The position numbers and the translations under genes were made by a program. The notes below the pieces were generated by a model. The model ran no database searches. It saw only the letters and a program-made list of their open reading frames with translations, and was not told the DNA's origin. This document shows positions 12,101 to 25,367 of a stretch of 64,000 bases of DNA, piece by piece. Position 1 is the first letter of the stretch. Each line of letters opens with the position of its first letter. Location of the stretch: the NCBI GenBank assembly GCA_035221665.1, contig CM069164.1, positions 15,004,001-15,068,000 on the forward strand. Reading direction: 5' to 3'. Source of the stretch: Okamejei kenojei. Taxonomy: Eukaryota.

Positions 12101-15100
12101 TGCTTTGTTAAGTAGGTGTGTAATTGTGTTGCGGACGGGCACAGCGGGCCGTGGGGACAGTCAGACCCTCGCTGACCTTCCTCCCACCCTGACCCAGACA
12201 CAGTAGCAGCAGTTGTAGCGAGGCCGGTTTGAGGCTGAAATCAGGACATCCAAATTGGGCTGAAACCCGATAGTGTGTCCGGCAGAGACGAACTGCGCTC
12301 CGTATATAAACGGTGACTGCAGCAGGGGTATAAATAACTGCCCAGTAAATAACGCTAATGCTACTCGCGGCCCCGCATGTTTCCCGCAGCCGCTGAGCCC
12401 TTCAGTCCCACTGCCCTTGGTGGCTTCGGGCTGGCAAAGCCTCCTCCGCCGGGACTGTTATTCTGCCAGAGAGGGAGAGTGTGTTCCGTGTCGGGGAGCT
12501 GTCATGGTGAAATGTCTGATCAAGATTAGAACCAAGGTCAACGTGCACCTGCGGATGATCAACCATTGCTGCCGTGATGTGAGGATCCGGATCCTCTCCC
12601 TGGGCCCACGGATCCTCAGCAAGGCGCTGGGCGCTCTGCCGCTCTTCCCCGCCCTCACCGCGGCCTCGCCGCACGACGGCCCCCTCCCCGGGGCGCCCGG
12701 CACCGGTGCAGGTAAACGCGGCTGCCGCCGCCCTGGGGAAGCTGCCGGGGGGGGGGGGGGGGGTTGGTTCAGGAGATTGGGGACGAGAGGTCACAGAGGC
12801 CGTTCGGCCATCCTCCGTGCGACTGGCTGGCCCCTGCTGGCCCTTTCTCACTCAAAGGCCAGGCTGCCAGACCAAGCGACCCTTGGGCACTGTTGACACG
12901 AGAGCGGAGGGGCTGTTCCCGGGGTCCCGGCCTCAGTAGTTATCGCTGGAGTGGTTATAATCACAATACTGTTTCTGGGATCTTGCTGTGTACACAGTAA
13001 TAGAACGAATCCCACAAAATACCACGTTTCTGGCTGTAAGGGAATGTGCAAGAAGCATTGTATAAATGTACGGGGAGGGGTGCGTTGTAAGGAGGGGCTG
13101 GAGTCCTTGGAAGACAGGGGGCCGAGGGATGACCTTCTAGAGATGTATACAAATGACGAGGGCAGTAGATACGGTGAATAGTCACAATCCTTTCCACAGG
13201 GCAGGCGAGTCTAAAACCAGAGGGCATAGATTTAATCCCAGCCTGAGGGGGACCTTTTCACACAGAAGGTGAAAAAGGTTTAGAGGGATATGGGCCAAAC
13301 GCAGGAAAGTGGGACTAGCGTGGGTAGTAGGATACCTGAAATAGCATGGAGGAGTTGGACCGAATGGCCGGTTTAACTCTATAACTCTATTCCTTTGTTC
13401 ATGTGAAGTTCCCAAAATATCCCATCAAACATGAAGTACGATCATCTTTAAACGCGAGGAGAATATGTATATTCTGTCCATCTATGTTCGGTGGGCGCCG
13501 CAGGCAGAGCCCGCGTTTCTTGCCCTTTAGGCGGCGGTGGTTTAACTGCAGTCTCCCCGTGGACGATGCCCCCACACGTGCGGGCGGGCGGGGAGTTTCG
13601 GGATTTAGATGAGGTGAGAGTGAAGGAACGGCGAAATGTCTCCAAGTCAGGGTGGTGTGTGTTCTTGGCGGGGAACCTGCAGGTGGTGGTGTTCCCCTGG
13701 TCCCATCATGTTGCCCGCGGTCATGGGTTGTGAAGTGCTGTGGGAGTGCCCGGGGCGAGTAATATTGTGCAGGTAACTCACCCTGCAGCCAGGTGCCGAT
13801 CGATCGGACTGCTTTGTTTTTGGATGGAGTTGAGCTTCTTGATACCATGCGGGGATTTGTACTCTATTATAGTGCTATATAAATGCTAATGTTCTTGCTG
13901 CAGAATGTAACATGTGCTCAGTGTTCCTATTGAGACTACAAGAAGAATCTGAAGTTTATAGCTGGGTTTGGTTAAGGAAGAGCTTCTGGGACCTGAGAAA
14001 CAGTGGGTGGGCCTCTGTTCGTCAGAAGCAGTAGGTGGAATCTCCCTCTCGGCACTGACCAGGCAAAGGGGGAACGTTAAGGCAGGATCTCCAGTTGGCC
14101 GTATCACTCTATACACACACACCTACCACTCAGTCAATAAATCTGCGGCACAGAGGGACAGTCTCCCCCTTAAACCTATGTGATTTTATTCAATTTAACA
14201 CAAATACAGAATAGTAAACAAAATAAAGACTGTCATTGGCAGTTCACAAACAACAACAGTTCTCTGATTTGAATATTCCGCTTGGGCAGTCTGCACCCTA
14301 ATGGCATAAACATTGAATTCCCCCAATTCCGTTAGCCCTTGCTGTCTCCTCCCCTTCCTAGTTCTCCCTCACCCCTCGGGCCCCTCCTCCTCCTCCTCCC
14401 TCCTTTTCCTTTCTTCTCCCGAAACATTGCCTATTTCCTTCGCTCCATAGATGCTGCTGCACCCGCTGAGTTTCTCCAGCACTTTTGTCTACCTATCTGA
14501 TTTGAACGTTGCCTACCTTATCTACCGTACATTCGACCCTCCCCCGACAACCAGCGTTCACCCTGTATGTCTTTGGGATGTGGAGGAAATTGGAGCAGCC
14601 GAGGGAACCAATATGTTCACAAGGAAAACGGGCAAACTCCATGCAGAAAGCGCACGAGCTCAGAATTTCCCTTCCAGTGCTGTTTTTCTTCCTTCGGAAA
14701 GTTCCTGTTGAATCTGCTCCGACCCCCCTTTGTTCCCAATCACGACTCATTACGTAAATAACATCCCTTCCCACTGGCGGTCCGCTCGTCTCATTGAACC
14801 CCTGTCCAGGCACCCCTGTCTAACAAAGCAAAGGTATGGTCCATTAATATAACCATATAACATATAACCATATAACAATTACAGCACGGAAACAGGCCCT
14901 CTCGGCCCTTCCAGTCCGTGCCGACCATTTGTTTTCCCCTAGTCCCATCTACCTGCACTCAGACCATACCCCTCCATTCCCTTCACGTCCATATACCTAT
15001 CCACTTTACTCTTAAATGTTAAAATCGATCCTGCCTCCACCACTTCTGCTGGAAGCTCATTCCACACAGCCACCACCCTCTGAGTAAAGAAGTTCCCCCT

Positions 15101-24100: not shown

Positions 24101-25367
24101 CCCAGTAACCCCTCGCATCCTGACAGTCACTGACCTCCGGTCTGGGTAAAAACTCAGGGATTTACCATCGAACCCCCCCCCCCGCCCACCACTCCATCGC
24201 TGAGGTAATTTGTTTTTGGACACTAAATATCAACTAAATACCTCCATAAGGCTTCCTAAGCCGTCTTAAGTGGAGGTCTTGGTGTACTTTCTTGGCCATA
24301 GCTCCCACGTGGCTGGTCCGGGACAAATTGCTGTCGATATTTACTCCGAAGAACTTGACGCTTTTGACCATCTATACTTCAGCACCATAAATATGCACTG
24401 TTTCGCTTCCTGAAGTCAATCGGTGACATCGAGGGAGAGGTTGTTACCTTTGGTACCAGGTGAGGAGGTTCTCAATCCCCTTTTGTGCTCATTCTGGTCA
24501 TTGTTTGACACCCTGCCCACTACGGTGGTGCCCTCTGTGAGCTCCTAAATGGATTTGGTTGCAATCATGAATGTTTAAGGAGTATACATCGGGGAGAGAG
24601 AACGCATCCTTGCGGGCACCAGTGTTGAGGATTACGTAGATCTGAATGGCATCATCTGTGTTTGATGCTGGGCCCTGGGTTGGACAAGCACCTTGGTCAG
24701 GGGCCACTTGTTTCCGAAGAGGCTTCATGTTTATGGTTTGTTGCGCGGGCATTCTCTCGGGTTTCCCGTTCACTGTGTGAGTGTCTCTGTTCCAGGTTTG
24801 GAATCGCTCCGGGATAGCGCCCACTCCACGCCGGTGCGATCCAGCTCTCACACAGACTCCTTCGTGATCCACTCGGGCAAGGCTTCGGCCGCCGAGGGCA
24901 ACGAGCGGACGTCGGTGATATCGGACGAGATGTACAACCCGGCCGGCAGTGTCCTGCCCACGCCTGTGTCGGAGCCCGGCCACGAATCCATCCTCCTCCA
25001 GCAAGTCTGCAGCTCCAGCGGCACCGAGGAGGAGAGGGGGAGCGAGGTGGGAGCGTCGGCAGCGGCAGAGGAAGCGGCCAGAGGGGCTGGCACCTCGCCC
25101 GAAGGTGTTAGTGAGAGGGCGGAGCAGGAACAGGTGAATACATTTGTTTTAAGTGTGGCCCGTTTGCTACTGGTGACCGTCGGACTGCTCTTTGCATTGC
25201 TCCTCCTCCTGATCGCTCTTGCGGAATCAGATATTGACGTAGCATTTTTACGTGATATACGCCAGACCCCTGAGTTTGAACAGTTCCATTATGAATACTT
25301 TTGTCCCCTCAGGCGATGGTTTGCCTGCAAGGCGCGGTACCTGCTAAGCCTTCTAATTGACACATGA
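96..25367 (+). CDS. FRMD5: FRMD5 (FERM domain-containing protein 5), 3' part; coding exons 96-183, 1489-1577, 4264-4327, 5445-5536, 7842-7916, 8851-8919, 9428-9534, 24796-25367
   Basis: GT-AG exons with matching phases translate to FERM-C/FA sequence ([20 protein letters not shown]..., [38 protein letters not shown]). The C-terminal TM segment and ...[16 protein letters not shown] tail are typical of FRMD5/FRMD3. DVSGN..FLAFTP and [16 protein letters not shown], plus the WDR76 neighbour, favour FRMD5. The 5' exons lie outside the window. Confidence 0.93.
381..741 (-). mobile_element. CR1-type LINE 3' fragment
   Basis: Encodes the CR1 ORF2 C-terminus ([20 protein letters not shown]...[15 protein letters not shown]) plus the 3' UTR. 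Confidence 0.8.
1489..1577 (+). CDS. FRMD5: FRMD5 coding exon (89 bp)
   Basis: ctgcag|GATGTC...AAGTG|gtgagt; [30 protein letters not shown]. Confidence 0.92.
2001..3186 (+). mobile_element. CR1-type LINE, 5'-truncated, with open RT ORF (2047-3174)
   Basis: [59 protein letters not shown]; ends in a (TTCTATGA)-type tail. Confidence 0.92.
4264..4327 (+). CDS. FRMD5: FRMD5 coding exon (64 bp)
   Basis: ccag|GACTGAA...AAAGAG|gtgaac; [21 protein letters not shown]. Confidence 0.9.
5445..5536 (+). CDS. FRMD5: FRMD5 coding exon (92 bp)
   Basis: tcag|GAATCG...TTACAA|gtaagt; [31 protein letters not shown]. Confidence 0.92.
7842..7916 (+). CDS. FRMD5: FRMD5 coding exon (75 bp)
   Basis: cccag|GTTTGAG...TACAG|gtaaat; [25 protein letters not shown]. 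Confidence 0.92.
8851..8919 (+). CDS. FRMD5: FRMD5 coding exon (69 bp)
   Basis: ttcag|TGGGAGA...CACAG|gtaaga; [23 protein letters not shown]. Confidence 0.92.
9428..9534 (+). CDS. FRMD5: FRMD5 coding exon (107 bp)
   Basis: cacag|GTCAGGC...GGAAG|gtaatg; [35 protein letters not shown], ends in phase 1. Confidence 0.92.
10565..10978 (-). mobile_element. CR1-type LINE 3' fragment
   Basis: Reverse complement of the CR1 3' UTR (gaagggccgaatggcctcctcctgcacctattttctatgtttc) plus the ORF2 end. Confidence 0.8.
12270..12940 (+). promoter_or_regulatory. CpG-rich candidate internal promoter with TATA-like boxes
   Basis: TATATAAA at 12303-12310 and TATAAATA at 12329-12336; dense CpG from about 12270 to 12940 inside an otherwise repeat-rich intron. 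Confidence 0.5.
12504..12711 (+). CDS. FRMD5: Candidate alternative first coding exon of a short FERM-less FRMD5 isoform
   Basis: Kozak context gtcATGG; 69 codons [45 protein letters not shown]...GTGA; donor GCAG|gtaaac is phase 1, matching the terminal exon; upstream TATA boxes and CpG-rich DNA. Confidence 0.65.
14845..15612 (-). mobile_element. CR1-type LINE 3' fragment (different subfamily, AACCATAT-type tail)
   Basis: ORFs 15138-15626 and 14939-15172: [46 protein letters not shown]. Confidence 0.88.
16798..16934 (-). mobile_element. Short non-autonomous retroposon (RTE-type tail) headed by an HDV-like ribozyme, copy 1
   Basis: 13-bp TSD GTAAACCTACGCT (16785-16797 and 16935-16947) splits a CR1 fragment; GAA/A-rich 3' tail; homologous copy at 43276-43421. 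Confidence 0.85.
16881..16934 (-). ncRNA. Minimal HDV-like (CPEB3-like) self-cleaving ribozyme motif
   Basis: GGGGUGG AA GAUUGCA ACC UUCACGU GGU CCGCCCU GU UUCGA CUAA UGCAAUC = P1, J1/2, P2, P3, L3, P3', P1', J1/4, vestigial P4, J4/2, P2'. Confidence 0.75.
18169..18218. repeat. (CT)n microsatellite
   Basis: About 25 CT units. Confidence 0.9.
20008..21125. repeat. About 1.1 kb GT/G-rich low-complexity tract
   Basis: Degenerate (TG)n with many G runs and almost no A or C on the + strand in the first half. Confidence 0.9.
24796..25367 (+). CDS. FRMD5: FRMD5 terminal coding exon (TM segment and stop)
   Basis: tccag|[24 protein letters not shown]...[28 protein letters not shown]...[16 protein letters not shown]...LIDT*. 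Confidence 0.93.

Follow-up and report, generated by a model that had tools for sequence, protein, structure and literature searches.

An internal exon of FRMD5 and a short, FERM-less isoform with a predicted membrane anchor

We describe an exon inside the last intron of FRMD5 in Okamejei kenojei. It lies in a stretch of 64,000 nucleotides (nt) of contig CM069164.1 (assembly GCA_035221665.1, positions 15,004,001 to 15,068,000), called the window here; coordinates are window positions and refer to the + strand unless stated otherwise. The exon opens with an ATG at 12504 and, in contigs from related species, is joined to the terminal exon of the gene, which the long, FERM-containing form also uses. 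Its predicted product of 259 amino acids (aa) carries a conserved basic N-terminal peptide ahead of the shared membrane segment and lacks the FERM domain. Spliced contigs from related species, selection on the exon and homologs across the vertebrates make us almost certain that this short isoform exists. Its N-terminal peptide may tentatively be read as a module that binds a partner protein as a beta-strand.

The exon and its terminal partner

The FRMD5 exons were mapped by tblastn with bowfin and fur seal proteins and span 94 to 9534. The last of them before the long intron (9428..9534), 87% identical to bowfin FRMD5 residues 322-360, is the penultimate exon of the long isoform. Its donor (9534|gtaatg) is of phase 1, and the last intron, 9535-24795, measures 15,261 nt. 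The internal exon sits in this intron, downstream of the last FERM-adjacent exon and upstream of the terminal one. Its ATG has a strong context (gctgtcATGg, with G at both −3 and +4) and opens 208 coding nt, that is 69 codons and one further base, ending at the donor GCAG|gtaaac (12711/12712). This donor is likewise of phase 1, and the donor at 9534 competes with it for the acceptor at 24796. The coding part of the terminal exon (24796..25367, 572 nt to the stop) brings the total to 780 nt including the stop, hence the 259 aa. All coordinates given by an earlier reading of the letters alone (the sequence-only reading), from ATG, donor and acceptor to phase and product length, were reproduced on recomputation.

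The terminal exon encodes an acidic spacer, predicted to be disordered (19 D/E against 7 K/R in 111 aa), a hydrophobic segment and a conserved C-terminal tail. The hydrophobic segment (25164..25220) is the one transmembrane-scoring stretch of the short product, with a Kyte-Doolittle mean of 3.16 over 19 residues against a maximum of 1.34 in the new exon, and falls in a long helix (predicted local distance difference test, pLDDT, 83-92) in a model of the bichir ortholog. FERM N, M and C domains were not found in short products: five of five proteins gave no Pfam family at E up to 1, and five of five more gave none at the cut-off.

Anatomy alone does not exceed chance, because three candidates in this same intron pass a simple test (strong Kozak context, at least 30 codons, phase-1 GT(A/G)A donor). 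That is the case for a chance intronic reading frame without a product, an explanation to which we attach next to no weight, refuted as it is by homologs (E = 1e-22), junction contigs and coding differences that are all synonymous. Conservation and junction contigs single out the 12504 exon among the three. Two ATGs upstream of it, at 12358 and 12377, lie in other frames than the main ATG and have a weak context; the frame opened by the latter (12377-12529, 50 codons) overlaps the main ATG and could tune translation.

Splicing and selection in related species

Fourteen sequencing runs with matches to the exon were listed, none recorded as RNA, and four of these were aligned to 12130-12950. The aligned runs are from related species, about 94-97% alike, and those that bear the junction come from two species and two studies. 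Assembled contigs carry the junction 12711 to 24796 in three of the four runs: X1 and X2, from organism A in one study, and X5, from organism B in another. Each of these contigs covers the exon and matches up to the donor and two bases beyond it, which are compatible with either side of the junction; the sequence that follows is the start of the terminal exon. The letters left loose past the donor number 26 in X1, 26 in X2 and 255 in X5, of which at most 30 are displayed, with one synonymous difference in X5. We infer that X1 and X2 are transcripts, because the two exons could be found joined in DNA only if a retrocopy existed in each of two species, and because nothing aligned beyond 12781. 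Together with the hydrophobic segment, these contigs bear out the proposal of the sequence-only reading that a spliced internal exon yields a FERM-less isoform with a membrane segment, and they show the very junction it had predicted. Two things speak against leaning on them too heavily: the fourth run, X6, ended at 12690, before the junction, and the junction runs are from related species with a guessed run type (X1 and X2 are labelled 'probably DNA').

All nine of the listed coding differences are synonymous, compared with 27% of possible changes (P about 1e-5; 7e-5 under a transitions-only null), in a list from which differences close to contig ends are absent. Purifying selection acts on the internal exon.

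The picture differs upstream of the ATG, where all four aligned runs show indels of +10, −2 and −2 nt at 12468-12473. These are not multiples of three and break the upstream frame, as expected of a 5′ untranslated region (UTR); the likely 5′ UTR, 12345..12503, lies inside the junction-bearing contigs. Exon-covering contigs start at 12284 (X1), 12345 (X2), 12390 (X6) and 12446, and, as contigs, cannot show where transcription starts. The same data bear on whether the exon is mainly a cassette exon within full-length FERM-containing FRMD5, the short form being minor. The frame is indeed open upstream to 12264, phase-1 AGs are present (for example before 12406), and 21 of 308 motif-bearing database entries, seven fur seal models among them, have FERM sequence ahead of the peptide. 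Against a cassette stand the frame-breaking indels, the loose 5′ end found in none of the four exon-covering contigs, the initiator methionine (M1) kept in 120 of 120 listed homologs and the sequence before it, which shows no relation from one FERM-containing model to the next, the pattern that joins made by gene prediction would leave. We therefore regard a mainly cassette role as quite improbable, and the exon would instead be the first of its own transcript. A pyrimidine-rich AG ends at 12389 and one relative's contig starts at 12390; this may mark the acceptor of an upstream non-coding exon in some species, or be a coincidence.

Homologs and database entries

The 69-residue peptide was used as a query and matched 148 proteins among 427 candidates, of which 120 were listed, at 61-82% identity. 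Among these 120, 55 begin at the same methionine and continue into the terminal exon with no FERM part; eight are FERM-containing models that include the exon, and one is extended upstream. The terminal-exon signature is missing from the other 56, which are mostly intron read-through, to judge from the ones inspected. A HMMER search gave 73 matches, one of them an unrelated repeat and the others including hagfish, blue tit FRMD3, platypus FRMD3 X2 and axolotl FRMD3 X2. An alignment search added 84 matches, made up of FRMD5 forms from mammals and birds, about 250 aa long, and FRMD3 forms measuring 200-245 aa. In the resulting set of 339 proteins, 308 have the motif, and 97 FRMD5 and 44 FRMD3 short forms begin at this methionine and reach the terminal exon without FERM sequence.

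Conservation is concentrated in residues 1-51 (12504..12656), referred to below as the module. Identity over these residues is 78-86% in bony fish, 76% in duck, 76% in lamprey and 61% in hagfish, falling to 47-51% in mammals (human 47%) and 39-49% in FRMD3 peptides. The codons that follow, up to the phase-1 donor from which the junction contigs depart (12657..12711), form a variable linker with 11-33% identity to homologs. The shared-exon spacer reaches 45-53%, below the module in the non-mammal FRMD5 comparisons (four bony fish, one further entry, duck and lamprey). The homologous reading frame that the sequence-only reading expected in other species is thus present, with the peptide conserved from hagfish to human and also in FRMD3.

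That reading had called the isoform hidden, which it is not, since orthologous isoforms are already database entries for human, mouse, zebrafish and others. A cluster look-up led to human A0A1B0GV18, mouse A0A1D5RLQ6 and human FRMD3 isoform 5 (NP_001231891.1). The annotated FRMD5 short isoforms, among them A0A1B0GV18 (249 aa), A0A1D5RLQ6 (256 aa) and zebrafish XP_021323491.1 ('isoform X4', 274 aa), have the homologous N-terminal peptide and the terminal exon, without FERM sequence, and the window product is their ortholog. The entries themselves bear a gene name only and no Pfam family. In the literature searched, which left most subscription journals and all supplements outside its scope and so does not establish absence from print, no study of a short FRMD5 or FRMD3 isoform was found among the papers listed; two FRMD3 papers mention isoforms or splice variants in passages that do not describe them. 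The short isoform is thus in the databases already and seems unstudied, and its presence there limits the novelty of our finding.

Mammalian short isoforms differ from the others in a diverged peptide with Gly2 and Ser4. This peptide, which starts Met-Gly and has lost Cys4, sits on a long branch (0.87); the last 76 residues of the protein, by contrast, do not differ among cattle, bat and human. Such sequence comparison suggests a shift of the module on the mammalian stem. In teleosts, some entries of 220-240 aa named 'uncharacterized' or 'FRMD5-like' (Denticeps XP_028824756.1, Tachysurus XP_060745895.1) keep the module and the membrane tail with a diverged spacer, and, to judge from their sequences, may be stand-alone genes for a short form only.

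The FRMD3 paralog and the age of the exon

The sequence-only reading suggested that a short FRMD3 isoform opens with a similar peptide, and such a peptide does begin the short FRMD3 entries from axolotl to human. We compared human isoform 5, platypus XP_039766814.1, axolotl XP_069481983.1 and 241-aa mammalian forms. All place a homologous peptide on the FRMD3 terminal exon at the same gene position; they differ from FRMD5 in a shorter conserved part, about 43 residues, and in its database entry human isoform 5 is longer by 13 residues at the N-terminus and is missing the C-terminal tail. It and several 200-aa FRMD3 entries end just past the hydrophobic segment. Because some short FRMD3 forms lack the conserved tail, there would be a second choice at the FRMD3 3′ end. 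The parts of one paper that were available describe FRMD3 as a single-pass membrane protein (PMC11687992).

The 2.76-Gb genome assembly was searched for copies of the peptide. Outside FRMD5 a single match emerged, on C3 (E 7e-6) near C3:113518785; the remaining matches have E above 1, and no third copy was found in the genome. The C3 copy follows FERM exons and lies about 3.6 kb ahead of the terminal exon of its gene, whose C-terminus groups with FRMD3 (support 97/96) in a tree from which the window's own C-terminus was excluded. Its reading frame shows a gap of one codon, residues 4-5 are altered, and a TGA interrupts the frame at codon 39, immediately ahead of the expected donor. This stop may reflect lineage-specific decay or an assembly error. 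A protein search with this FRMD3 peptide found no candidate sharing three words, and the alignment search then recovered the FRMD3 forms.

Since the same exon occupies the same intron of both paralogs and lamprey and hagfish have proteins of the same design, we place the origin of the arrangement before the FRMD3/FRMD5 split, as the sequence-only reading had conjectured; gene position and protein comparison are the grounds. The cyclostome genes could not be placed relative to the duplication in a 45-column tree, in which two of 22 inner branches were starred.

Properties of the N-terminal module

Residues 1-45 of the window product contain 10 K/R and one D/E, with cysteines at 4, 22 and 23. 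The charge is a constant feature: all 16 tabulated sequences have a net charge of about +9 per 45 residues (8-11 K/R, 0-2 D/E). Across 146 distinct homolog N-termini, three residues never vary (L16, N20 and C22) and four others hardly do (H21, R29, L31 and G34). M1, K3, L5, I8 and T10 are fixed in that set by the pattern that selected it, which does not hold for L16, N20 and C22; the former five are also invariant in the 120 listed matches and in a 23-sequence alignment. Cys22 is present in 146 of 146, Cys4 in 120 (replaced by Ser in 26) and Cys23 in 16, its place mostly taken by Tyr, Ser or Leu. The basic and hydrophobic composition noted in the sequence-only reading is therefore general, while its three cysteines are not, Cys22 alone being invariant.

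Residues 2-19 alternate hydrophobic with basic or polar side chains, and their hydrophobic moment is greatest at 180 degrees, averaging 0.80 there and 0.37 at 100 degrees; the beta moment of the window product's residues 6-19 was reached by 32 of 10,000 shuffles. A helical moment appears at residues 34-45. AlphaFold2 gives residues 1-30 a pLDDT of about 81 with neither helix nor intrachain strand, and a helix at 35-41. On these models residues 1-30 would be compatible with an unpaired extended chain. In the model of the bichir short isoform the N-terminus is weak and the middle disordered, and the C-terminal part forms three helices.

Of the amphipathic targeting segment envisaged in the sequence-only reading, the amphipathicity is there, of the beta-strand type, and a helical targeting peptide is disfavoured. 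Mitochondrial presequences are amphipathic helices of low sequence conservation. The module is beta-periodic at residues 2-19, with a predicted helix only at 35-41, and is 76% identical as far as lamprey. An organelle-targeting role, which would send the shared membrane domain to another compartment than in the long form, can point to an extreme N-terminus that is basic and nearly without acidic residues, and to the mitochondrial proteins reported, in the available text of one paper, from pull-downs with a tagged FRMD3 construct of unstated isoform (PMC11687992). We consider such targeting improbable.

How the short isoform may act

The leading reading, which we hold at a little less than an even chance, is that the N-terminus is a protein-binding module of beta type. 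Its fuller version makes the short isoform a FERM-less membrane adaptor from an internal promoter, whose N-terminal basic beta-strand binds a partner protein; this too is a tentative preference that falls somewhat short of probable. A promoter at about 12300-12350 would drive a transcript starting with the 12504 exon. The N-terminus of the product would face the cytosol, like the FERM domain of the long form, and residues 2-33 would bind as an extended strand to a conserved surface of the partner, probably an acidic one. The distance from module to membrane would be set by the acidic spacer, predicted to be disordered. On the same membrane anchor, the basic strand would thus take the place of the FERM domain as the tether.

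Direct binding of membrane lipid is a rival account of the same peptide. Here the basic residues and S-acylation of Cys22 would form a second anchor that bridges two membranes or clamps one. The constant charge, the invariance of Cys22, and the helical moment at 34-45 with its predicted helix at 35-41 all suit this account; the replacements at Cys4 and Cys23 leave no conserved cysteine cluster, and lipid binding usually needs fewer invariant residues than the L16, N20, H21, R29 and G34 of the module. We judge it unlikely.

Returning to the protein-binding reading, several results weigh against it. For a second putative strand, at residues 25-33, as many as 894 of 10,000 shuffles did as well, which is not significant; in mammalian FRMD5 and amniote FRMD3 these residues lean helical. 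The predicted template-modelling scores are low (0.35, 0.29). Pfam, PDB (by sequence profile), Foldseek (with the whole-isoform model) and ESM Atlas gave no match that lends a function, only the clusters of FRMD3 and FRMD5 themselves. The long mammalian FRMD5 branch and the in-frame stop in this genome's FRMD3 copy show that the module can drift or be lost. Promoter likeness between FRMD3 and FRMD5 is not significant either, as described below.

A known system that works in a comparable way, by analogy rather than homology, is small ankyrin 1 (sAnk1/Ank1.5), described as a small membrane-anchored isoform made from an alternative promoter inside a long gene (PMC4848520). The available part of a second report has it bind obscurin through short basic and hydrophobic stretches (PMC11927728). 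The order of parts is reversed, in that the membrane segment of sAnk1 precedes its cytoplasmic domain (residues 29-155), and muscle specificity and partner are known for sAnk1, whereas the FRMD5 short form is known here from sequence.

Upstream region and tissue

A candidate internal core promoter lies at 12303..12351, where a motif scan finds TATA-like motifs at 12303 and 12329 and A/T-rich boxes at 12328-12351. We considered a conserved A/T-rich element of 13-15 nt upstream of both paralog exons and rejected it, since scores as good came from 147 of 1000 shuffles and from 42 of 132 real windows. A perfect MEF2-type site is found upstream of the FRMD3 copy only, so muscle specificity of the FRMD5 exon is without motif support. 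At the gene level, FRMD5 expression is described in cardiomyocytes, and in neurons too, in the text available from PMC13067603; this gene-level cardiomyocyte expression hints faintly at striated muscle as the tissue of the short isoform.

Other features of the window

An AATAAA at 25716-25721, about 350 nt past the stop, is a candidate polyadenylation signal. On the - strand, open reading frame pieces at 28898-43328 and 52773-60706 resemble exons of two genes, which from their translations we take to be a WD-repeat gene (WDR76-like) and a RecQ helicase (BLM-like), respectively.

Significance

A neurodevelopmental disorder with ataxia has been linked to FRMD5 (as cited in PMC13067603), and diabetic kidney disease to FRMD3 (PMC4696171, PMC11687992); as far as the available text of these papers goes, both are treated there as FERM proteins. 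Reagents aimed at the FERM exons would miss the short product, and coding variants in the internal exon would read as intronic relative to the long transcript. Because the last exon is common to both isoforms, 3′-end or gene-level counts cannot separate them.

Taken together, the observations allow a broader picture that we offer as a speculation, rather unlikely to hold in all its parts. The ancestor of FRMD3 and FRMD5 would have made two products from one anchor, and the module would be a vertebrate-wide binding motif of about 50 residues, without a Pfam family and nearly unchanged from lamprey to bony fish. The short form would be the main product in one tissue, for instance as a sarcoplasmic-reticulum or junction tether in striated muscle, and in some teleosts it may have become a gene of its own. 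More conserved than the neighbouring spacer and without domain annotation, the module would be a small and direct target for partner discovery.

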